Shown: positions 4,549 through 64,000, counted from the stretch's first letter. The stretch: DNA of 64,000 nt from Flavobacteriales bacterium (GCA_040376605.1 JBEIQI010000001.1:5191-69190), one strand, 5' to 3'. The notes: a model not told the origin generated them from the sequence alone. Translations and numbers: made by a program.

Positions 4549-4606
4549 ATTATTATTTATACCAATAATCAGGAGTGAGATCCTGATTATTGGTATAAAT
4601 AATTGA
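4549..4606 (+). terminator. Long near-perfect inverted repeat (about 24-bp stem, 6-nt loop) immediately after the 3631-4545 CDS; probable intrinsic terminator or structural element
   Basis: caattattatttataccaataatcagga-gtgaga-tcctgattattggtataaataattg, followed by AT-rich sequence. Confidence 0.55.
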
Positions 4607-4843
4607 TAAATAAAAATTTAATATATATATATAAACAAATAGTTTAATTAATACCTTCATTTAACATCGTTGATCCTTCATTTGTACTATCACGCTAGTT
4701 ATAATAGTTTAAATATCTGTAAATAAGAATTATATGAATTAATAACATGTTAATAACTCAGTGATTTGTTAAATCATTGAAATAATTCATGAATTCTCCT
4801 GTTCCACGAATTAAAATAATTTAATTCAATCTACTTTTGTACC

Positions 4844-5371
4844 ATGATGGGTTTCGAATTGTTATCGGATGAATTGCTGAAAAAAGCTAGTAAGATTAAA
4901 TTATTGATAACGGATTGTGATGGTGTATTAACCGATAACGGAGTTTATTATTCCGAAACAGGCGAATTCACCAAACGATTTTCCATTCGAGATGGCATGG
5001 GTGTTGAGCGATTAAGAACGCAAGTTGGGGTAGAAACCTCCATTATGACAGGTGAAAATTCAATGTCTGTTTTTAAAAGAGCGGAGAAACTCAAGATTAA
5101 ATTTTTGTACCAGGGCATAAAAGATAAAAAGGCCATTTTGCCGGAGGTGCTTGTTGCTGCAGGTGTTACTCCAAGCGAGATTGCTTATATTGGAGATGAT
5201 ACCAATGATATTGAAATCATCAAAGAAATTGGGTTTTCGGCAACTCCTGCTGATGGAACCATTTTTACAAAAGAAATAGTAGACTATATTTGTAAAGAAA
5301 AAGGCGGCTATGGTGCGTTTAGAGAACTCGCAGAATTAATCATTTTCGCTAAGAACAAAAATAAACAATAG
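4844..5371 (+). CDS. HAD-IIIA family sugar-acid phosphate phosphatase (KdsC / KDN-9-P phosphatase type)
   Basis: 175 aa. DxD motif (LLITDCDGVLTDNGVYY), conserved IMTGENS...KDK...GDDTNDIEI, same size and architecture as KdsC. Adjacent to a NeuB-family synthase. Confidence 0.75.
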   Translation: MMGFELLSDELLKKASKIKLLITDCDGVLTDNGVYYSETGEFTKRFSIRDGMGVERLRTQVGVETSIMTGENSMSVFKRAEKLKIKFLYQGIKDKKAILPEVLVAAGVTPSEIAYIGDDTNDIEIIKEIGFSATPADGTIFTKEIVDYICKEKGGYGAFRELAELIIFAKNKNKQ

Positions 5372-5383
5372 GGTTTAAAGAGA

Positions 5384-6265
5384 ATGAGAAGAGTTGATAT
5401 AAAAAATGGCAGAAGCATTGGTGATGGTTTTCCTACTTATATAATTGCAGAAATAGGCATTAATCATAATGGCTCTATTGATATTACTAAAAAATTGATT
5501 GATTCTGCAATCAAGTCTGGATGCGATGCCGTTAAATTTCAAAAGCGGACTCCCGAAATTTGTGTACCCAGAGATCAATGGGATAAAGAAAGAGAAACCC
5601 CTTGGGGGAAAATGAGCTATATCGATTATAAAAAGAAAATTGAATTTTCTGAAGATGATTATGCAGCCATTGATAAATATTGTAAAAAGCAAGGAATAGA
5701 CTGGTTTGCTTCATGTTGGGATGAACCTTCAGTAGATTTTATTGAACATTTCGATCCGGTTATTTATAAAATGGCATCGGCTTCTTTAACTGATTTTCCC
5801 TTATTAACCAAGGTGAGATCCACTGGTAAACCCATTATCATTTCCACTGGCATGAGTACTATGGAAGAAATTCACGCTGCCGTTAAACATTTAGGAACGG
5901 ACAATTTGTTAATAGCCCATTCTACCTCGGCATATCCATGCGTTCCCAACGAATTGAACTTGCGTATGGTGGTTAGTCTAAGAGAATTATTTCCAACATG
6001 CCCAATTGGATATTCAGGACATGAAACCGGATTAGCTACTACTGAAGCCACCATAGCTTTAGGAGCTAATTTTATAGAACGTCATTTTACTTTAGATAGG
6101 GCCATGTGGGGAACCGATCATGCTGCATCTGTTGAGCCAGAAGGTATGAGCAGATTGGTAAGAAATATTCGCGACATCGAAATAGCTTTAGGGGATGGGA
6201 TAAAAAAAGTCTATGAAAGCGAAAAAGAACCTATTAAAAGATTAAGAAGGGTACATCTCACGTAA
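5384..6265 (+). CDS. NeuB-family (sialic acid / KDN-9-P synthase type) aldolase, short form lacking the C-terminal SAF/antifreeze-like domain
   Basis: 293 aa. N-terminal FPTYIIAEIGINHNGSIDITKKLIDSAIKSGCDAVKFQKR is the hallmark NeuB/PseI/LegI motif. At 293 aa it is about 50 aa shorter than canonical NeuB. Confidence 0.75.
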   Translation: MRRVDIKNGRSIGDGFPTYIIAEIGINHNGSIDITKKLIDSAIKSGCDAVKFQKRTPEICVPRDQWDKERETPWGKMSYIDYKKKIEFSEDDYAAIDKYCKKQGIDWFASCWDEPSVDFIEHFDPVIYKMASASLTDFPLLTKVRSTGKPIIISTGMSTMEEIHAAVKHLGTDNLLIAHSTSAYPCVPNELNLRMVVSLRELFPTCPIGYSGHETGLATTEATIALGANFIERHFTLDRAMWGTDHAASVEPEGMSRLVRNIRDIEIALGDGIKKVYESEKEPIKRLRRVHLT

Positions 6266-6268
6266 ATA

Positions 6269-7243
6269 ATGATCGAAAAAATTATTCATTTTTTTTCATC
6301 TATTAATTGGAACAGCGCCGAAACTATTTCAAGCATCATTATCGTATCCGCTGTTGTATTATTTTCTATTCTCGAACGGTTATTTCCATATCAAAAGGGA
6401 ATCCCATATTTTAGAAAGGGGTGGTATATCGATTTAATTTGGTACACTTTTATTCAAAGCTTTATTTTAAAAATTGTCATTTTTACATGGATCATTGGTC
6501 CGGTGCATGATCTTTTAAATTTACCAACTGAAGGGATTTTATCCCATTGGCCATTATGGGCACTCATATTATTCTATTTTATTACCCATGATTTTTATAT
6601 GTATTGGATGCATCGTTGGCAACATTATAATAAAATATTATGGAGAACCCACGAGGCGCACCATAGTGTTGAACAAGTTGATTTTATTGCAGGTAGTAGA
6701 TCCAATATGATTGAAATTATCATTAATCAAACCATAGAATTTGCACCCATTGTTCTATTACTTGATGTGGAAACGGGAATTTTGGTTACCTATATAAAAG
6801 CATCTATTGATGCGGTTTATGGTCAATTTATTCATGCCAATTTAAATGTAAAAATGGGCAAACTGGGTTATATATTTAATGGGCCTATTTTGCATCAATG
6901 GCATCATGGCGACCAAGTGGAGGTATATCATGCCAATTTTGCCACTAAATTATCACTATGGGACTACATGTTCGGAACGGCCTATAATCCAAATAAAAAA
7001 CCCGAACGTTATGGGGTTTGGTATAGATTTCCCAAGGATTGGTTTATGCAACATGTTTTTTCGTTGGTTAGGTTTAATGTTGGAAAACTGGAGGATTCAA
7101 AGGCTTGTAGTTGGTATTTTAATTTTAGAGTAAATTTGATCAAGTTGTTTTTTAAATGGTGGAAGAAAATATTTGGGTTTAGGCTAAATAAAAGAAAATT
7201 GATCGAAGGCGAATTGTATGGACCCAAACCCGAGCTCGTATAA
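6269..7243 (+). CDS. Fatty acid hydroxylase / sterol desaturase superfamily integral membrane protein (di-iron, His-box)
   Basis: 324 aa. Multiple TM segments and three His boxes (HDFYMYWMHRWQH, HEAHHS, HQWHHGD). Confidence 0.75.
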   Translation: MIEKIIHFFSSINWNSAETISSIIIVSAVVLFSILERLFPYQKGIPYFRKGWYIDLIWYTFIQSFILKIVIFTWIIGPVHDLLNLPTEGILSHWPLWALILFYFITHDFYMYWMHRWQHYNKILWRTHEAHHSVEQVDFIAGSRSNMIEIIINQTIEFAPIVLLLDVETGILVTYIKASIDAVYGQFIHANLNVKMGKLGYIFNGPILHQWHHGDQVEVYHANFATKLSLWDYMFGTAYNPNKKPERYGVWYRFPKDWFMQHVFSLVRFNVGKLEDSKACSWYFNFRVNLIKLFFKWWKKIFGFRLNKRKLIEGELYGPKPELV

Positions 7244-7260
7244 CTCAATTATTAATAAAA

Positions 7261-7632
7261 TTGACAGTATCCTTTATTTATTTAATCATTGCATCAGCTT
7301 TCCAATTGGCATGGTTGTATAATATAAAGCTCATGCCAAAGGGAATTTGGAGTCAATTAAAACAAGGTAAAATATTTACTAAAGTTTTCTGGAAAGCAAT
7401 TTTGCCCATTTTCCTTTATATCTTGTTTAGTATTTCAAATATTGTTTTTCTTACCATGGCCATGCACGACATCCCAGCCTCTATTGCCTATGCAGTATGG
7501 ACCGGTTTGGTTATTGCAGTTTCAACCGTTATAGATCAGATTGTTTTAAAAAATGGCTTTAACTGGCTTAAGTATTTGTTTTTATTGATGATTACCCTGG
7601 GTATTATTGGTTTAAAGCTTTCAACTAAATAA
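7261..7632 (+). CDS. Small multidrug resistance (SMR/DMT) family protein, subunit 1 of a tandem pair (TTG start); TM1 Glu replaced by Gln
   Basis: 123 aa, 4 TM. C-terminal half DIPASIAYAVWTGLVIAVS...LGIIGLKL matches the SugE/EmrE signature. TM1 reads SAFQLAW where the family has the catalytic Glu. Confidence 0.6.
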   Translation: MTVSFIYLIIASAFQLAWLYNIKLMPKGIWSQLKQGKIFTKVFWKAILPIFLYILFSISNIVFLTMAMHDIPASIAYAVWTGLVIAVSTVIDQIVLKNGFNWLKYLFLLMITLGIIGLKLSTK

Positions 7633-7635
7633 AGG

Positions 7636-8007
7636 ATGCGCTGGATTTATCTCATACTTGCCTCCTGTTGCGAAATTGCTTGGTTTTATTGTATTGGCTA
7701 TCTTAATCAATTAACATTTAAGGAGTTATATACATTTTCATTTCTAGAAAAGGAGGAGGTTTTATTGATTATGGGAGCCATCCTTAGCTATATTTTATTT
7801 GGGATAGCCAATATGTTGTTGTTTATGAAAGCTATGCAAAAAATTCCGGCATCTATTGCTTTCTCCATCTGGACAGGGGTTGCCTTGGTTGGAATTACCA
7901 TTATTGATGGTCTTTTTCTCCACATTAACCTTTCTTTACTGCAAATTGGCAGCATTGCTTTTATCATCATTGGGGTGGTAGGGCTAAAGCGATATGTAAA
8001 TACCTAA
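7636..8007 (+). CDS. SMR family protein (SugE/Gdx-like), subunit 2 of the tandem pair
   Basis: 123 aa. MRWIYLILASCCEIAWFY keeps the TM1 Glu. KIPASIAFSIWTGVALVG...GVVGLK is the SugE-like signature. Confidence 0.65.
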   Translation: MRWIYLILASCCEIAWFYCIGYLNQLTFKELYTFSFLEKEEVLLIMGAILSYILFGIANMLLFMKAMQKIPASIAFSIWTGVALVGITIIDGLFLHINLSLLQIGSIAFIIIGVVGLKRYVNT

Positions 8008-8072
8008 GTTTGGTGATGTGGGTATTGAATAATTGTTGTATTTTTGAACACAACAAATTAGACTTTTTAATC

Positions 8073-9227
8073 ATGAAGAAACTTTATTTAGCACTTGTTT
8101 TATTTACAGGGTTATCTGTAGTTAATGCACAGCACCCAATAGAATCGGCACATAATACCAATGTTACTGTGCAACCTAAAAATACCAATCAGGATAGAGC
8201 TGTTGGTTATTATTTTGTAGACTACGAAGGATATGATGCTTCCTTAGGAACCTTAGAATCTGGAGTTTTATTTTTTAACCGTAGAAATCCAGTTTATTTT
8301 GGAACTTCTACATTAGGTATGGGTGAAGCCGCAGTGGTTTTTGATACCATGATTGTTACTCAGGATTATTCAGTTTTTGATATCTATCCTGGAAATGCAG
8401 TACAAAATTTTGATGTGGATACAGCTTATATCGTTTTACACCATCAAAACAATTCTGGTTTAGCAGATACTATTATTCTTTCTATTAAGAATGTAGCTGC
8501 TAACGGAACTCCTGGTACTACCGTTATGTGGGCTGATACCATTATTACTACTGTAGCTTTAACTAATCCTCCTACAGGAACAGGTTATCCAATTTCTCAA
8601 TATGCTTTCCCAATTGATATGGCACCTATCGCTGGTGGTAAATTTAGTTTATTTGTAAACTATTACGGTGCAGCGGTTGATACCTTTGGTTTAATTAGTT
8701 CTAACAATACCTCTGGTGCTCCTTGTGCTAATGCTGCTGCTGGAAATGAAGCCATTACTTCTGAAGTATTCCCTTCATCATTCTACAGATATTGGAATGC
8801 TACTACCTTAAGCACTGTTCAACCCAATAACGTAGGTAGCGGTGGATTGTATATCGATTGTAATGGTAATGCGGCGGCTGATTGGTTAACTGAGCAAGCA
8901 GTTCAAACATTCAGCATTTGGGTTTCTGGTACACTTACCGATAACTTAGGAGTTGATGAAGAAGCTGCTGGTGTTCAAGTTAATGCTTATCCAAACCCTG
9001 CTACCGATTTCACCACTATTCAATTTACTTTGGTGGATGACGCCAGTGTTTCTGTAAACATTACCGATCTTTCTGGTAAAGTGGTTTATAACAATATTCT
9101 TGGTAAGCGTGATGCTGGTAGCAACAATATTGTTGTTAACACATCTGAGTTTAGCAATGGCGTTTACATGTACACTGTTAATGTAAATAACAAAAAAGTT
9201 ACAAGAAGAATTATTGTAAATAAATAG
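8073..9227 (+). CDS. Secreted protein with type-A T9SS C-terminal sorting domain (Por_Secre_tail)
   Basis: Track ORF 8010-9227. A better start is the Met of MKKLYLALVLFTGLSVVNAQ (signal peptide). The C-terminal about 80 aa (VNAYPNPATDFTTIQFTL...ITDLSGKVVY...NGVYMYTVNVNNKKVTRRIIVNK) is a classic T9SS CTD. Confidence 0.7.
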   Translation: MKKLYLALVLFTGLSVVNAQHPIESAHNTNVTVQPKNTNQDRAVGYYFVDYEGYDASLGTLESGVLFFNRRNPVYFGTSTLGMGEAAVVFDTMIVTQDYSVFDIYPGNAVQNFDVDTAYIVLHHQNNSGLADTIILSIKNVAANGTPGTTVMWADTIITTVALTNPPTGTGYPISQYAFPIDMAPIAGGKFSLFVNYYGAAVDTFGLISSNNTSGAPCANAAAGNEAITSEVFPSSFYRYWNATTLSTVQPNNVGSGGLYIDCNGNAAADWLTEQAVQTFSIWVSGTLTDNLGVDEEAAGVQVNAYPNPATDFTTIQFTLVDDASVSVNITDLSGKVVYNNILGKRDAGSNNIVVNTSEFSNGVYMYTVNVNNKKVTRRIIVNK

Positions 9228-12454: not shown

Positions 12455-12772
12455 ATGGCTGTTTTAAATGTTAACGATATCACCTTTAGTACAGAGTTGG
12501 CAACAAGCGATAAAGTAGTTGTAAAATATTATGCCGATTGGTGTGGATCATGTAAACTTTTTGCTCCTAAATACAAAAGATTATCAGGCGATGAAAGGTT
12601 TGCCGGAATTCAATTTCTGGAGGTAAATGCAGAAGAAAACCCAGAAGCCAGAAAATTTGCAGGAGTGGATAACCTCCCATTCTTTGCCATATTTAAACAG
12701 GGCAAATTGGTTGAAGGATCTGCAACCAGCAAGGAGGAAGCTGTAGTAGCAATGTTGGAAAAACTTAATTAA
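12455..12772 (+). CDS. Thioredoxin-fold protein with non-canonical WCGSC active site
   Basis: Track ORF starts at 12332. A better start is the Met of MAVLNVNDITFSTELATSDKVVVKYYADWCGSCKLFAPKYKRL..., giving a 105-aa thioredoxin-sized protein. Ser replaces the canonical Pro of CGPC. Confidence 0.65.
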   Translation: MAVLNVNDITFSTELATSDKVVVKYYADWCGSCKLFAPKYKRLSGDERFAGIQFLEVNAEENPEARKFAGVDNLPFFAIFKQGKLVEGSATSKEEAVVAMLEKLN

Positions 12773-13718
12773 GATTTTTATCTTTCAGTTGGTTGGCCAC
12801 CCAAGTGGATAAACTATAGGCCCCTGCAACATTAAGGTGTTCTTGATCATACCAGTTTTTCTTATTGGTAAAAATGGAATCTGGAGCTATCCAAACTTCT
12901 CCGTATGATAGATATGTATCCATCTCAATGGGCGTTTTTTCAGGACTTCCATAAGGCGGGATATATAAAAAAATGATTTTCACACCGTTATTTATCGCCA
13001 ACGTATTTATATTAGCCAACCATTTTCTGGATAATGGTAAATTAATTCTACGGGTCCAGGTAAAACTATTACCTTGGTTTTTAATTCTTCTAATTTTATT
13101 TTGATTTAATTGATTAGTATCTGCAGTAAAGGCATTTGTGCTGAAGCCGAATTCCTCTCTAAGGCCGTATTTATAAACCAAACTATCCTTAAATAAATCC
13201 TGCCGAAAGTACATAATCCTTGAAATGGCCGCATTATATAGATTGTTAGGATAACTTCTATTTACAATGGTTTGCGGATTAACTACATCTTTTATATCAG
13301 CCAAAAAAGGGAATACTGGATGACTAAATGGATTTTCATCCGGTAAGACCTCAATGATAAAAGTTTTGGTATTTTTTTGTTGAATTATATGTTTCATCAT
13401 CACATAGGTAAGATCACGTCCCAGGCGGCAATAACCTAAATTGCAAACGGAAATAGGAGGCAAAGAATCAGTCATGAGCTGTTGATTTATTAAGGTATCA
13501 TTGATACCATTAATAGTATGGGAGGATCCTAAAAAAGCAATATCAATGGGCCTTTTTAATTCAAATACTCTGCGATAGATCCAGGCTCCACGACCTTCAC
13601 AATCATCTGTAAGATAATGATAGGCTCGTTTTGTGTTGGTAGGCATTGAAAAAAAAACAAATCCACCTATAACCAAAGGAACTAAAAACAGGAGGATATG
13701 TAGAATAAATTTTTTCAT
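12765..13718 (-). CDS. Membrane-anchored periplasmic partner protein of MBOAT acyltransferase (AlgJ/AlgX/DltD-like SGNH-type, putative)
   Basis: 317 aa, N-terminal TM anchor. Start overlaps the stop of the upstream MBOAT gene (translational coupling), an arrangement typical of AlgI-AlgJ / DltB-DltD pairs. The canonical DxHW motif is not obvious. Confidence 0.5.
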   Translation of the reverse strand: MKKFILHILLFLVPLVIGGFVFFSMPTNTKRAYHYLTDDCEGRGAWIYRRVFELKRPIDIAFLGSSHTINGINDTLINQQLMTDSLPPISVCNLGYCRLGRDLTYVMMKHIIQQKNTKTFIIEVLPDENPFSHPVFPFLADIKDVVNPQTIVNRSYPNNLYNAAISRIMYFRQDLFKDSLVYKYGLREEFGFSTNAFTADTNQLNQNKIRRIKNQGNSFTWTRRINLPLSRKWLANINTLAINNGVKIIFLYIPPYGSPEKTPIEMDTYLSYGEVWIAPDSIFTNKKNWYDQEHLNVAGAYSLSTWVANQLKDKNLN

Positions 13719-15127
13719 TAGAACTGAAAATAAATAAAAGTGGGGGCATTATTAAAATCACCAAATAAAAGTATGCAAAGAATTAAGGAATAATATAATA
13801 GCCATCTAAGGACTTTTGGAATACCTTTTATCTTTTCTGCAAAGGTTATTTTATTCATCCAAACTTCAATTAGCACAAATAGGGCTAAGGGGAGCAAAAA
13901 TAATTGGTTGTAGATGCTTAATGGATAAATAAAACGTTCGATGATAAAATTGAACGAAAACAATGGACTCCAGGCCGCCATTGTTTGAGCTAAATTGACT
14001 GCTCTAAAAGGTACCCAGCAAAGAATTACCGAAATAAATACAATTAAACTGAATCCTTTAAATGATGGAAATACCTTCATCAATATTTTTTCCACCACCA
14101 GTAGGATTCCATGCAAAAACCCCCAGATAAGAAAATTATAACTGGCCCCATGCCAAAAGCCCGAGAGTAAAAATGTAATCATGATATTGATGATATACCT
14201 TATTATGGTCCCTCTGTTTCCCCCCAAAGGAATAAATACATAATCCCTGAACCAGGTGGATAAAGATATATGCCAACGTTGCCAAAACTCTGTAAAGGTT
14301 TTAGAAAAGTAAGGAGTTTTAAAATTTACCATTAACTCAAATCCTAATAACCTAGCGCAGCCCATGGCAATATCAGAATAGCCGGAAAAGTCGCCATATA
14401 TTTGTATAGCAAATGCCAATACCCCTATCCAAGCGGAAATACTATCAAAACCTGAGGGATTACTAAAATATTGATTGGCCAAAACCGCAAAAGTATCAGC
14501 GATTACCATTTTTTTAAACAACCCCCAAATAATCATCCTAACACCAGAAGTTGCTTGGTCATAATTAAATTTTTTTGCACTGGAAAATTGAGGGAGCATG
14601 TGTACTGCCCTTTCTATTGGACCTGCAACCAATTGTGGGAAGAAAGAAACAAAGGCAAAAAAGTCGATTATATTTTTGGTAGGGGTTAGTTTTCCTTTGT
14701 AAACATCTAGTGCATAACTCATTGATTGGAATGTATAGAAGCTAAGACCCACCGGTAAAATAATTTTTAGCGTTTGCAAGGATCCTTCGTATCCCAATAC
14801 TTGCATCATATCATTAGCCGACGTAATAAAGAAGTCGCAGTATTTAAAAAATCCAAGGAGGCATAAATTAACACCTAAACTAATTCCTAAAAATATTTTT
14901 TTATTGGATCTATTTTTGGCAGAGTGAATAAGTAAACCTGATGCAAAATCAACTGAAGAGCTGAAAATTAGCAAAAGAAGGAACCTCCAGTCCCACCATC
15001 CATAAAACAAATACCCCCCAAAAATCATAAAGAGATTGCGGGCATCTTTATTAGTCCGCGCCAAGATCCAGTAACCTGCAAAGAACAGGATCAGGAAAAT
15101 AAAAAATGTAATGGTGGTAAAGGTCAT
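13718..15127 (-). CDS. MBOAT family membrane-bound O-acyltransferase (AlgI/DltB/PatA type)
   Basis: 469 aa, polytopic. Conserved FWQRWHISLSTWFRDYVFIPLGGNRG and catalytic-His region FLLSGFWHGASYNF are MBOAT hallmarks. Confidence 0.85.
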   Translation of the reverse strand: MTFTTITFFIFLILFFAGYWILARTNKDARNLFMIFGGYLFYGWWDWRFLLLLIFSSSVDFASGLLIHSAKNRSNKKIFLGISLGVNLCLLGFFKYCDFFITSANDMMQVLGYEGSLQTLKIILPVGLSFYTFQSMSYALDVYKGKLTPTKNIIDFFAFVSFFPQLVAGPIERAVHMLPQFSSAKKFNYDQATSGVRMIIWGLFKKMVIADTFAVLANQYFSNPSGFDSISAWIGVLAFAIQIYGDFSGYSDIAMGCARLLGFELMVNFKTPYFSKTFTEFWQRWHISLSTWFRDYVFIPLGGNRGTIIRYIINIMITFLLSGFWHGASYNFLIWGFLHGILLVVEKILMKVFPSFKGFSLIVFISVILCWVPFRAVNLAQTMAAWSPLFSFNFIIERFIYPLSIYNQLFLLPLALFVLIEVWMNKITFAEKIKGIPKVLRWLLYYSLILCILLFGDFNNAPTFIYFQF

Positions 15128-33115: not shown

Positions 33116-33258
33116 TAATTGATTTATAAAGAAGAGGTTAGAGACTGGCTCGTTGAACCTCTGGCAACCAACTATAAGCCCCGTTAATTCGGGTTGGAAA
33201 ACCGGTGCCAATTCCAGATTCTGCTACATATTGTATCAGAAGAATATAGATTGAGAAA
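33116..33258 (+). promoter_or_regulatory. SAM-I (S-box) riboswitch aptamer
   Basis: Contains the invariant SAM-I blocks ...AGAAGAGGTTAGAGACTGGCTCGTTGAACCTCTGGCAACC... (GGCAACC at 33163-33169) and GGTGCCAATTCC (33204-33215). P2 (GAGGTT/AACCTC), P3 and P4 hairpins can be drawn. It sits 5' of metY-metX-hom. Confidence 0.8.
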
Positions 33259-63009: not shown

Positions 63010-64000
63010 ATGACCAATAATGTATATGCTTATTTAACACCTATTGCCATTCTATTTATTTTATTGGAGGTTGGTTTGGTGTTATTGTTTAAACGAAAGT
63101 ACATTCGATTTCAAGAGGCCATTGCTAATTTTGGAACAGCCCTTGGCAATCAAACCATGAATGTTTTGGTTGCTGCCGGAGTCTTTGTTGTATATGGAAT
63201 TTTATGGGAACGGTCTCGATTCATTAACCAAATTGATATAACTAATCCTATCAATTTTATCCTCCTTTTGTTGGGGGTAGATTTTATTTTTTATTGGGTG
63301 CATCGTTGGGGTCATCATATTAATATTATGTGGGCTGCCCATTCGCCACATCATTCTGCCGAGGAGATGAATTATCTGGTGGCTTTAAGAGCCAGTGTAA
63401 CGCAACGTTTATTTTCATTTTTCTTTTTTTGGCCCTTGGCTCTTATTGGGTTTAAGCCCGAACATATTTATATGATGACAGGTTTGCATTTATTTATTGC
63501 TTTTTTACATCATACAGAGTTTATTCCTAAACTTTGGAGGGGTATTGAATTTTTGTTTACTACACCATCACATCATCGGGTTCACCATGGGGTTAACTTT
63601 AAATACCTGGATAAAAATTTTGGTGAATTTTTAATAGTGTGGGATCGTTTGTTTGGCACATTTGCCGAGGAAAAGGAGAAGGTAGTTTATGGGATGTACA
63701 ATGGACCTAAAACATGGAATCCCATTTATATCAATTTTCATTATTATATACAGCTATGGAAATTGGCCAATGAATCGAAAAGTTTTTGGCCTAAACTCAT
63801 CATTTGGTTTATGCCTTTGGGATGGACACCAAAGGATGTAAAACCCAAACCTGCAAATGTGGAAATGACCCAACAAAATCAGGTTAAATTTAAAACGATT
63901 ATGTTCCCAATGGCTAAACCCTATCTGCTGTTACAAACTGTTTTTGGGGTAGTCTTGATGTTATTAATTATTTCACCTAATTCAACCTGGTTGGTTTATG
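63010..64000 (+). CDS. Fatty acid hydroxylase / sterol desaturase superfamily membrane protein (second paralog); runs off the window end
   Basis: Not in the ORF track (no stop in the window). ATG at 63010. His boxes HRWGHH, HSPHHS, HHRVHHG and 4 or more TM segments. Confidence 0.7.
   Translation, partial: MTNNVYAYLTPIAILFILLEVGLVLLFKRKYIRFQEAIANFGTALGNQTMNVLVAAGVFVVYGILWERSRFINQIDITNPINFILLLLGVDFIFYWVHRWGHHINIMWAAHSPHHSAEEMNYLVALRASVTQRLFSFFFFWPLALIGFKPEHIYMMTGLHLFIAFLHHTEFIPKLWRGIEFLFTTPSHHRVHHGVNFKYLDKNFGEFLIVWDRLFGTFAEEKEKVVYGMYNGPKTWNPIYINFHYYIQLWKLANESKSFWPKLIIWFMPLGWTPKDVKPKPANVEMTQQNQVKFKTIMFPMAKPYLLLQTVFGVVLMLLIISPNSTWLVY

Follow-up and report, generated by a model that had tools for sequence, protein, structure and literature searches.

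Five open reading frames (ORFs) lie on the plus strand between positions 4844 and 8007 of the window, by which we mean the whole 64-kb stretch of DNA that was analysed. They encode a HAD phosphatase, a NeuB-family synthase, a membrane hydroxylase and two SMR subunits (SMR1 and SMR2; Table 1). The first-pass annotation had proposed a five-gene module here, and the module is real: ORF translation finds every gene where it had been drawn, with family matches far beyond chance. The gaps between the genes are, in order, 12, 3, 17 and 3 nt. Further upstream, an inverted repeat directly follows the stop codon of a 304-aa gene and is separated from the first ORF by an AT-rich spacer of about 240 nt; it looks like a terminator hairpin marking the 5' limit of the operon. 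Because the five genes share a strand, are spaced by 3-17 nt and have this hairpin upstream, we regard them as a single operon. Judged by profile HMMs, none of the five is an orthologue of a characterised enzyme, as every equivalog cut-off is missed.

Table 1. Coordinates of the five ORFs and the upstream inverted repeat.
Feature	Coordinates	Strand	Details
Inverted repeat	4552..4603	+	perfect 23-nt arms, 6-nt loop, 100% complementary
HAD phosphatase ORF	4844..5371	+	175 aa
NeuB-family synthase ORF	5384..6265	+	293 aa
FA_hydroxylase ORF	6269..7243	+	324 aa
SMR subunit 1 ORF	7261..7632	+	123 aa, TTG start
SMR subunit 2 ORF	7636..8007	+	123 aa

The phosphatase and the synthase

The first gene product carries a DxD nucleophile motif (D24, D26) and is a predicted HAD-IIIA phosphatase of the KdsC/KDN-9-P phosphatase type. 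It scores 148.8 bits against the KdsC subfamily model TIGR01670 (cut-off 106.95), which cannot tell KDO-8-P from KDN-9-P phosphatases. The top model is NF058599 (KDN-9-P phosphatase, BT1713 type) at 153.2 bits, below the equivalog cut-off of 180 and slightly above the KdsC model PRK09484 (149.2 bits, where a KdsC equivalog requires 208). The best match in the PDB is 3E81, which is BT1713, the KDN-9-P phosphatase of Bacteroides thetaiotaomicron. Glu71 and Lys82 (TGE...AEKLK) occupy the positions of BT1713 Glu56 and Lys67, residues probed by mutation that we identified from PDB entries 4HGQ and 4HGR; in the KdsC structures 4UM5 and 1J8D the Glu is replaced by Arg (TGR and SGR). The E/K signature is kept in 50/52 HAD partners of the short NeuB proteins described below.

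The second gene product matches PF03102 along the whole profile (positions 1-241 of 241; E = 1e-79, 267.8 bits against a gathering threshold of 22.1). This match covers residues 38-274 and leaves 19 residues at the C-terminus, and therefore no room for a SAF domain; a profile search of the 293-aa protein found none. Glu23, Lys51, Gln53, Lys129, Ser154, His213, Glu232, His234 and Asp245 are identical to N. meningitidis NeuB E25, K53, Q55, K129, S154, H215, E234, H236 and D247, which are catalytic, PEP-binding or metal-binding sites (including the metal-binding His pair). Two sites differ in the alignment: the catalytic E134 of the N. meningitidis enzyme is Ser134 here, and its N184 is also Ser. 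The catalytic, PEP-binding and metal-binding roles are assigned after Gunawan et al. and PMC8208679. Subfamily HMMs, a check that had been proposed for this protein, reach neither equivalog: the scores are 262.3 bits for TIGR03569 (N-acetylneuraminate synthase; cut-off 399.65) and 206.9 bits for TIGR03586 (PseI; cut-off 340.25), and the equivalog model of 329 positions aligns only up to position 277. By family membership, the protein is most simply described as a predicted SAF-less nonulosonate(-9-phosphate) synthase. Its more specific assignment as a Kdn-9-phosphate synthase (EC 2.5.1.132, BT1714 type) we infer solely from the KDN9PP-type partner and the Streptomyces orthologues.

The synthase had been called truncated as well as SAF-less, and only the second description holds. 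Canonical NeuB and PseI proteins have about 350 aa, and the 293-aa protein could on that count be a decaying remnant in a non-functional locus. Conservation rules this out, leaving it a negligible chance: each of the 80 species-level loci recovered, from Bacteroidota, Ignavibacteriota, Chlorobiota, Chloroflexota and Streptomyces, encodes a member of one clade of about 294 aa at 61-72% identity, and a ten-sequence alignment of these short proteins has more than 100 invariant columns. NeuB homologues of 289-305 aa number in the thousands, one of 290 aa has a solved structure (6NCS), and synthases without a SAF domain are recognised as a class of their own (PMC8208679). A length of about 294 aa is normal for this large, conserved clade.

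In public annotation the phosphatase is a KDO 8-P phosphatase. The TIGR01670 cut-off it passes and its PRK09484 score would fit a housekeeping supply of KDO for LPS, with the phosphatase as the genome's KdsC and the NeuB-like enzyme as a substitute for KdsA. We find this very improbable, as the KdsC equivalog cut-off is missed, the Glu/Lys pair is that of BT1713 and not of the solved KdsC enzymes, the synthase belongs to the NeuB rather than the KdsA family, and the same pair occurs in Streptomyces, an organism without LPS. Moreover, the Kdn-9-P synthetase of Prymnesium parvum rejected Ara-5-P as a substrate (PMC6200933). At the level of sequence, the two proteins form a synthase/phosphatase pair of KDN-9-P type; the phosphorylated route suggested by the first-pass annotation is upheld by BT1713 as the best solved match and by the Glu/Lys signature.

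The membrane proteins

The third gene product is, by profile match, an integral-membrane di-iron enzyme of the FA_hydroxylase family (PF04116; E = 1e-24, 87.5 bits against a threshold of 31). Its sequence contains the His boxes HX3H, HX2HH and HX2HH as H115RWQH119, H128EAHH132 and H209QWHH213. The sole named NCBIfam relative is OlsE, the ornithine-lipid headgroup hydroxylase, and the match is weak: 102.6 bits against the equivalog model NF052566 (cut-off 475), over model positions 36-278 of 293.

Both SMR subunits match PF00893 (E = 4e-9 and 5e-9; 37.3 and 37.1 bits, gathering threshold 23.7). Alignment with SugE and EmrE puts Gln15 of SMR1 (SAFQLAW; codon 7303-7305) at the position of the central Glu, which SMR2 retains as Glu13 (CCEIAW; codon 7672-7674). 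This replacement had already been noticed; it is fixed in all SMR1 orthologues (47-52% identity) and in one more distant pair. The Lys/Arg bias is -4 in SMR1, loops 1 and 3 of which are therefore predicted to be cytoplasmic, and +2 in SMR2. The orthologues show -5/-6 versus +3/+2, and singleton relatives range from -2 to +2. Adjacent genes with opposite bias are the criterion for paired SMRs (PMC9574504), and because of this opposite bias, typical of an obligate heterodimer, SMR1 and SMR2 are predicted to form a fixed antiparallel heterodimer; the first-pass annotation had proposed a heterodimer.

The two subunits belong to a small clade (201 representative clusters among 1.84 billion proteins) with Asn where Gdx has Ser42. 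Both have a clade-specific loop-1 insertion of about 17 residues, the Trp at Glu+3, the binding-site Trp (AVWTG) and a C-terminal GxxGLK-type motif (GIIGLK/GVVGLK). The pair had been thought closer to ArnE/ArnF than to drug or guanidinium exporters, a view that the HMM scores, all of them far below cut-off, do not support: SugE is the best-scoring named model for both subunits (38.7 and 36.5 bits, cut-off 126), all Qac models are far below their cut-offs, and ArnE matches SMR2 only (22.2 bits, cut-off 92). With Gln15 in SMR1 and such low equivalog scores, the pair does not qualify as a proton-coupled Gdx/SugE or Qac transporter; the low ArnE score and the lack of an arn-type transferase gene likewise keep it out of the ArnE/ArnF flippases. 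A search for a guanidine riboswitch, or any other riboswitch, found none.

Gene neighbourhood and the proposed pathway

In related loci, the phosphatase and synthase genes sit within a cluster of about ten genes that also encodes a NeuC-like epimerase, a NeuA-like CMP-transferase, often a split transketolase, a class-III aminotransferase, an SDR, the hydroxylase and, in Bacteroidota, the SMR. We found it in Hymenobacter, Puia, Mucilaginibacter, Ignavibacteria, Calditrichota, 'delta proteobacterium' MAGs and one Anaerolineae MAG. This cluster occurs in many environmental bacteria and is apparently unstudied; our literature search for it found no paper. The phosphatase and synthase are its invariant core across many phyla, the former lying directly 5' of the latter in 55/74 loci. 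HMMs built from related loci match neither a CMP-transferase nor the other extra cluster genes in the 64-kb window, in agreement with the first-pass annotation, which had seen no CMP-transferase there. In this Flavobacteriales-like lineage these genes are presumably elsewhere in the genome. Since the pair is accompanied by a NeuA-like CMP-transferase and a NeuC-like epimerase in other phyla, an activation step does exist in the family-wide cluster.

The hydroxylase gene lies directly 3' of the synthase gene in 41 of 73 testable loci, from at least four phyla, and an SMR gene lies 3' of the synthase gene in 12/23 Bacteroidota loci. Flavobacteriales keep the synthase, hydroxylase and SMR genes together even where the rest of the cluster is not nearby. 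In a Lewinellaceae variant, a PhyH dioxygenase and an LPG_synthase_TM (MprF-flippase-type) protein take the positions of the hydroxylase and SMR. Neither of the latter is beside the pair in Chlorobiota, Chloroflexota or Streptomyces; they are accessory and could belong to a different lipid pathway.

The keto-deoxy-sugar reading of the locus is well supported, and for the exact sugar made by the pair we infer a Kdn-type product. There is perhaps an even chance that the five genes act as one operon that uses the phosphorylated route to make a Kdn-type, sialic-acid-like 2-keto-3-deoxy sugar acid of nine carbons, with the membrane half acting on the same product. The SAF-less synthase would condense PEP with a hexose-6-phosphate-type aldose to a nonulosonate 9-phosphate, from which the phosphatase would strip the phosphate. 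The larger cluster adds the NeuC-like 2-epimerase, the NeuA-like CMP-transferase and often the split transketolase, and its class-III aminotransferase and SDR probably introduce an amino group; because of this aminotransferase, plain Kdn is unlikely to be the final sugar. The OlsE-like hydroxylase and the SMR most likely act on a membrane-anchored stage of the product. The hydroxylase would oxidise a lipid or lipid-linked conjugate, and the SMR, duplicated here into a putative antiparallel heterodimer with one carboxylate (Gln15/Glu13), would carry a lipid-linked or amine-bearing product across the inner membrane. Gene neighbourhood, family-level analogy and a published comment that the central Glu is often missing from lipid SMRs, often with Asn in its place (PMC9574504), make these hydroxylation and flippase roles plausible. 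No recognisable glycosyltransferase is encoded in the window or the wider cluster, the cluster has no lipid-carrier enzyme, and nothing physically connects the sugar acid with a lipid. The first-pass interpretation as a whole is supported in part: the sugar-acid pair and the Gln/Glu heterodimer hold; the truncation and the closer resemblance to ArnE/ArnF are not supported.

It is also conceivable, though on balance unlikely, that the neighbourhood is mixed: a nonulosonic acid pair, an independent OlsE-type hydroxylase of ornithine or lysine aminolipids and an ordinary Gdx/Qac-type cation exporter, adjacent only through shared envelope-related regulation. OlsE as the only named family of the hydroxylase, aligned over most of its model, and SugE as the best score for both SMR subunits would fit, as would the phosphatase/synthase pairs that have neither membrane protein beside them and an OlsF-like aminolipid synthase adjoining the synthase and hydroxylase genes in four Ignavibacteriota loci. 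OlsE homologues are also reported to be widespread in Bacteroidetes, according to the title of Holzl et al. 2018 (cited in PMC12971839). However, the OlsE and SugE scores are four- to five-fold under their cut-offs, the small SMR clade is set apart by its insertion and Asn residue, and no guanidine riboswitch was found at the locus. The tight spacing and the frequent position of the hydroxylase right after the synthase, even with the rest of the cluster elsewhere, likewise argue for a shared pathway.

Alternatively, the substrate of the SMR could be soluble and not a lipid: a cationic intermediate or end product that bears an amine, exported much as polyamines are by MdtIJ, with the single Glu tuning stoichiometry for a monovalent amine. 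The aminotransferase of the full cluster makes an amine-bearing product likely, both conserved Trp residues are present in each subunit, and the known SMR subtypes other than ArnE/ArnF move cations (PMC9574504). We nevertheless think this improbable: a sugar acid with one amine is zwitterionic rather than cationic, the SMR is associated more closely with the hydroxylase than with the aminotransferase (persisting in Flavobacteriales loci that have no aminotransferase nearby), and the MprF-flippase-type replacement in the Lewinellaceae variant points to a lipid substrate.

A more ambitious version of the sugar-lipid pathway, to which we assign a low but not trivial probability, is that the cluster of NeuC-like, NeuA-like, aminotransferase, SDR, phosphatase, SAF-less synthase and hydroxylase genes follows a sugar-phosphate route to an as yet undescribed amino-nonulosonic acid. 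This would decorate a membrane lipid such as a hydroxylated aminolipid or a sphingolipid, or form its headgroup, with OlsE-like hydroxylation and flipping by a dedicated SMR. If so, it would be a bacterial sialo-lipid pathway, and ArnE/ArnF would be joined by a second, independent lipid flippase of the SMR family, here as a single-carboxylate Gln/Glu heterodimer.

Comparison with known systems

The Kdn pathways of B. thetaiotaomicron (BT1714 synthase and BT1713 phosphatase) and Prymnesium parvum also combine a NeuB-family synthase with a KdsC-fold HAD, a coupling that implies a phosphorylated aldose substrate. The present locus differs in having a membrane hydroxylase and an SMR beside the pair, the phosphatase falls under the BT1713 equivalog cut-off (153/180), and the wider cluster has an aminotransferase, SDR, transketolase and NeuC-like protein, all unneeded for Kdn. 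Compared with canonical neuC-neuB-neuA clusters, the synthase has no SAF domain and scores below the NeuB equivalog cut-off (262/400), the phosphatase is obligatory, a protein labelled "U" is without a Pfam match above threshold, and the class-III aminotransferase, the SDR and the split transketolase are extra enzymes.

Streptomyces loci encode, in order, a DUF6716 putative glycosyltransferase, a NeuA-HAD fusion with the E/K signature and a SAF-less NeuB (61-64% identity). The teichulosonic-acid polymer contains Kdn. Its cell-wall cluster in S. coelicolor includes SCO4879-4881 (NeuE-like, NeuA, NeuB) in the same arrangement (PMC3479208, PMC13011467), suggesting that the short NeuB of other Streptomyces species is orthologous to SCO4881. 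The phosphatase is free-standing here and fused to the CMP-transferase there; Streptomyces has the putative transferase but no hydroxylase or SMR, while the window has no transferase.

ArnE/ArnF resemble the SMR pair in lying inside a sugar-modification cluster, in sometimes being paired and in the loss of the central Glu from a subunit. Here, however, only one subunit lacks it, with Gln rather than Asn in its place, a loop-1 insertion sets the clade apart, and no ArnC-like undecaprenyl-phosphate glycosyltransferase is in the cluster (neither the window nor related clusters contain an ArnC/ArnT-like gene). OlsE of Rhizobium tropici, which hydroxylates ornithine lipids at C4 of the headgroup, shares superfamily, His boxes, membrane location and a near-full model alignment with the hydroxylase, but the genomic partner here is a sugar-acid synthase instead of ols genes, the four OlsF-containing Ignavibacteriota loci excepted.

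Finally, in the Kdo8N (KdnA/KdnB, Shewanella) and kanosamine (NtdABC) pathways, a dehydrogenase and an aminotransferase, with a HAD phosphatase in the Ntd case, aminate a sugar or sugar acid. The enzyme families differ and the SDR and aminotransferase genes lie outside the window, but by analogy these two enzymes, the aminotransferase being of class III, may plausibly follow the same logic in the full cluster.

Layout and boundaries of the operon

The five open reading frames between 4844 and 8007, all on the forward strand and separated by gaps of 12, 3, 17 and 3 nt, have the layout of one operon. We assigned them to families with Pfam and NCBIfam models. The first-pass annotation of this region, which had described five reading frames, these families and the Gln and Glu strings of the two SMR genes, was factually correct throughout.

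On the upstream side, a perfect 23-nt inverted repeat is followed by an AT-rich spacer of about 240 nt that reaches to the operon's first ATG. A scan for sigma-70 promoters and terminators was uninformative, with 17 promoter-like sites observed against 24 expected by chance. In Bacteroidetes the -7 promoter consensus is TAnnTTTG, and TACTTTTG (4834-4841, +) matches it 2 nt upstream of the ATGATG start of the phosphatase gene. If this motif is used, the mRNA would be leaderless or translation would start at a later codon. No riboswitch of the guanidine or other families was found upstream of the operon or of the SMR genes; the search returned a single match, to MIR399 within the first SMR coding sequence (7282-7363, +), which we take as chance given its weak score (22.8 bits vs 57, E 0.07). 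Over the whole window, a SAM-I riboswitch alone scores above its Rfam threshold.

Immediately downstream, the longest reading frame of a gene for a T9SS C-terminal sorting-domain protein begins 3 nt after the second SMR gene, with a possible alternative start at an internal ATG (MKKLYLALV...) about 60 nt in. Por_Secre_tail proteins likewise lie downstream of the operon in its closest relatives (loci L005-L007) and in one further MAG (L089). This gene may be co-transcribed with the operon, or its position may just reflect the abundance of such genes in Bacteroidota. Another 3' neighbour, 5 kb away, is a membrane O-acyltransferase gene (MBOAT, 469 aa) followed by one for a 317-aa protein with no Pfam match, an arrangement similar to the AlgI/AlgJ- or DltB-type pairs for polymer O-acylation.

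Features of the operon, of its surroundings and of compared loci in other genomes
Feature	Position	Strand	Evidence or remark
Perfect 23-nt inverted repeat	4552-4603		3' of upstream gene's stop
HAD-IIIA phosphatase, KdsC subfamily	4844-5371	+	TIGR01670, 148.8 bits vs 107
NeuB synthase, complete domain	5384-6265	+	PF03102, E 1e-79, profile 1-241 at residues 38-274
FA_hydroxylase	6269-7243	+	PF04116, E 1e-24
SMR subunit 1	7261-7632	+	PF00893, 37 bits vs 23.7
SMR subunit 2	7636-8007	+	PF00893, 37 bits vs 23.7
T9SS sorting-domain protein	8010-9227	+
MBOAT gene and 317-aa protein gene	12765-15127	-
SAM-I riboswitch	33121-33252	+	RF00162, 57 bits vs gathering threshold 44.4
Second FA_hydroxylase-family gene	63037-63999	+	PF04116, E 8e-26; clipped by window end
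OlsF-like gene, L041	10868-12637
OlsF-like gene, L064	4083-5837
OlsF-like gene, L079	12201-13949
OlsF-like gene, L082	9290-11059
Variant cluster, L017	585-9471
GNAT-domain protein, L034	10970-12088

The synthase and its phosphatase

The synthase had been called truncated, which it is not. No residues of another domain follow the PF03102 match, and NeuB-only homologues of 289-305 aa are very numerous. A scan of one genome per species found 593 relatives, the best 80 of which are 61-72% identical to the window protein and come from Bacteroidota, Ignavibacteriota, Chlorobiota, Chloroflexota, Acidobacteriota, Calditrichota, Myxococcota, MAGs labelled 'delta proteobacterium' and Streptomyces. More than 100 columns are invariant in a ten-member alignment of this short clade, and a 290-aa NeuB homologue has a solved structure (6NCS). 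A published survey puts the share of nonulosonate synthases without a SAF domain at about 30%; most of these are from environmental bacteria, Streptomyces among them (PMC8208679). Aligned with NeuB of N. meningitidis, the window protein keeps E25, K53, Q55, K129, S154, H215, E234, H236 and D247, and has Ser at the position of E134. We consider the chance of gene decay at this locus negligible.

The top model for the phosphatase is KDN-9-P phosphatase (NF058599, 153 bits, below its cut-off of 180), and the KdsC model PRK09484 scores 149 bits. Its best solved match is BT1713, the KDN-9-P phosphatase of Bacteroides thetaiotaomicron (3E81, E 6e-33), followed closely by KdsC enzymes. BT1713 has also been deposited with Glu56 changed to Ala (4HGQ) and with both Glu56 and Lys67 changed to Ala (4HGR), so these are the residues its depositors probed. 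At these positions the window protein has Glu71 and Lys82 (TGE...AEKLK). In the KdsC structures from Moraxella and Haemophilus, the first of the two is Arg and the second is Glu or Asp. The Glu/Lys pair is found in 50/52 phosphatase partners of short NeuB, across all phyla and including the NeuA-fused HAD domains of Streptomyces. This pattern marks the window protein as a predicted KDN-9-P type phosphatase and makes its public annotation as a 'KDO 8-P phosphatase' probably wrong. The KDN-9-P-type logic proposed for the HAD and NeuB pair in the first-pass annotation therefore stands, on both the best solved match and the Glu/Lys signature. That the pair instead serves housekeeping KDO supply, as the nearby KdsC scores might suggest, is very unlikely in our judgement. 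An obligatory phosphatase also implies that the aldose substrate of the synthase is phosphorylated; the Kdn pathways of B. thetaiotaomicron and Prymnesium parvum follow this pattern (PMC6200933).

A larger cluster in other genomes

The HAD/NeuB pair lies inside a longer co-directional cluster in Hymenobacter sedentarius, a Hymenobacter-like MAG and Puia, with the gene order U (a 358-395 aa protein with no Pfam match), CTP_transf_3, Transketolase_N, Transketolase_C, Aminotran_3, SDR, HAD, NeuB, FA_hydroxylase and SMR. Surveying 87 loci by tblastn and de-novo clustering, we found the same order in Bacteroidota, Ignavibacteriota, Calditrichota, 'delta proteobacterium' MAGs and one Anaerolineae MAG, with the transketolase missing from some Ignavibacteriota clusters. 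Mucilaginibacter dorajii is another cultured species that carries the full cluster. One such cluster, in a MAG labelled Janthinobacterium lividum (L002, GCA_050954465.1), is 67-84% identical to that of Hymenobacter over its whole length and has Bacteroidota-like neighbours; this contig is probably mis-binned.

We counted gene neighbours at 80 species-level loci, using as denominators the loci whose contig permits each test. The phosphatase gene is immediately 5' of NeuB in 55/74 loci, and U, the CMP-transferase, the aminotransferase and the SDR each lie 5' of it in 31 to 37 of 55. The hydroxylase is immediately 3' of NeuB in 41/73 loci (20/26 in Bacteroidota and 17/23 in Ignavibacteriota), and in none of the testable Chlorobiota, Chloroflexota or Streptomyces loci. 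An SMR gene lies 3' of NeuB in 13/68 loci, 12 of them among the 23 from Bacteroidota. At the level of sequence, the NeuB-type synthase and the predicted KDN-9-P-type phosphatase are co-inherited as a unit, and share a conserved operon with a membrane hydroxylase of the di-iron type and a putative heterodimeric, single-Glu SMR.

Other phyla place different genes beside the pair. In three Chloroflexota loci (L034, L065 and L078) the gene after the short NeuB encodes 372 aa ending in a GNAT domain, as might be expected if an amino sugar acid were N-acetylated. Neuraminic acid reportedly occurs in an aminoglycosphingolipid of Chlorobium. At the Chlorobium locus there are no lipid genes near the HAD-NeuB pair. 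This lipid (Jensen et al. 1991, cited in PMC11762602) would be a candidate explanation for the Chlorobiota pair. Streptomyces loci carry a DUF6716 gene, a NeuA-HAD fusion and then the short NeuB. By hhalign, U and the DUF6716 protein show no relationship (probability 0.3%). Kdn is said to be present in the teichulosonic acid polymer. The Streptomyces order is that described for SCO4879-4881, a PhoP-activated teichulosonic-acid cluster (PMC3479208, PMC13011467).

The closest relatives of the window operon (L005-L007, NeuB 81-91% identical) have its exact arrangement of HAD, NeuB, hydroxylase and two SMR genes. There the operon adjoins aroB/aroA and proline dehydrogenase, and none of the remaining cluster genes lies within 10 kb. 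NeuB, hydroxylase and SMR also occur together without the rest of the cluster in a MAG labelled Flavobacteriales (L088) and in the MAG of L089. Searches of the 64-kb window with tblastn and family HMMs found no U, CMP-transferase, aminotransferase, SDR or transketolase half, in line with the earlier remark that no CMP-transferase is visible there.

The hydroxylase, the SMR pair and a possible pathway

The window hydroxylase has three His boxes (H115xxxH119, H128xxHH132 and H209xxHH213), and each of its 1127 close homologues is a 'sterol desaturase family' protein with a single domain. Among named families it matches OlsE alone, over nearly the full model and at 102.6 bits against a cut-off of 475. 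OlsE is the C4 headgroup hydroxylase of ornithine lipid (PMC12971839). The second gene of this family in the window, directly 3' of the ATP synthase operon (atpB-F-H-A-G, about 57.6-62.9 kb), encodes a protein 29% identical to the operon hydroxylase and less OlsE-like (55 vs 103 bits).

At four Ignavibacteriota loci, with or without the hydroxylase, the short NeuB adjoins an OlsF-like bifunctional aminolipid acyltransferase (Acyltransf_2 and Acetyltransf_5), a possible connection of the hydroxylase or the pathway with acyloxyacyl aminolipids; we searched the window for such a gene and it is absent there. A Lewinellaceae locus (L017) has, in this order, HAD, NeuB, a glucose/sorbosone dehydrogenase, U, a GFO/IDH/MocA oxidoreductase, CTP_transf_3, a PhyH dioxygenase and LPG_synthase_TM, the family of the MprF flippase domain; other families appear to stand in for the SDR, hydroxylase and SMR. 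Few and circumstantial as they are, these cases are consistent with a substrate that is a lipid and has to be translocated.

The Gln15 (SAFQLAW) and Glu13 (CCEIAW) of the two SMR subunits occupy the alignment position of the central Glu in SugE and EmrE. Among cluster-linked SMRs, the central residue is Gln in 3/3 subunit-1 orthologues (47-52% identical) and Glu in the subunit-2 orthologues and all singletons of other Bacteroidota. All but the Calditrichota member share a loop-1 insertion of ~17 residues, and in all of them Asn replaces the Ser42 of SugE. When 1.84 billion representative proteins were scanned in full with HMMER, only 201 clusters matched at E <=0.001. Gln is present in all nearest relatives of subunit 1 and in 8/36 full-length relatives, and a more distant Bacteroidota MAG also encodes a pair in which the Gln subunit comes first and the Glu subunit second. 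This distribution indicates that the substitution has become fixed in an SMR that is duplicated and specific to the cluster. The Lys/Arg bias is -4 to -6 in subunit 1, +2 to +3 in subunit 2 and -2 to +2 in singletons; according to the literature, such opposite bias distinguishes fixed antiparallel heterodimers from dual-topology homodimers (PMC9574504).

The pair had been likened to ArnE/ArnF-type flippases. In favour of this, the central Glu of lipid-transporting SMRs is often Asn, and these may not be proton-coupled (Burata et al., PMC9574504); against it, both subunits score higher with SugE than with ArnE, every NCBIfam score being far below its cut-off. A role of the SMR as a small-molecule exporter is improbable in our view. 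A Gln/Glu heterodimer would be a natural single-carboxylate SMR, and could help test how SMRs shifted between proton-coupled cation export and lipid translocation.

In the pathway we propose, the synthase would condense PEP with a hexose-6-phosphate-like aldose and the phosphatase would free the nonulosonic acid, which in the full pathway would be CMP-activated. The SDR and aminotransferase may aminate the sugar, either ahead of the condensation or following it, by the logic of NtdC/NtdA/NtdB and KdnB/KdnA. The hydroxylase and SMR would work on a membrane-bound form of the product. We are reasonably confident in the soluble half of this model; the lipid and flippase half is tentative, and for the combined statement the balance is even. 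The main rival takes the hydroxylase as a plain aminolipid hydroxylase and the SMR as a cation exporter, adjacent for no mechanistic reason. The OlsE match, the SugE scores and the OlsF-like neighbours sit comfortably with it, the recurrent place of the hydroxylase directly 3' of NeuB less so, and we think it rather unlikely.

Nonulosonic acids (sialic, legionaminic and pseudaminic acids, Kdn) have been studied mostly in pathogens. The present clade of SAF-less synthases, each with an obligatory phosphatase, is found in environmental bacteria of at least eight phyla and stays above 60% identity among them. Its constant association with a membrane di-iron hydroxylase, and in Bacteroidota with a private SMR clade, suggests an undescribed glycoconjugate or lipid of the envelope. 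A literature search for the cluster returned no relevant paper. Every part belongs to a known superfamily, and all fall short of the equivalog cut-offs for characterised enzymes; the cluster is ordinary in its parts, and as a whole widespread, strongly conserved and uncharacterised. Its combination of class-III aminotransferase, SDR, split transketolase, OlsE-like hydroxylase and private SMR clade matches no described pathway, while its sugar-acid logic is shared with the Kdn pathway.
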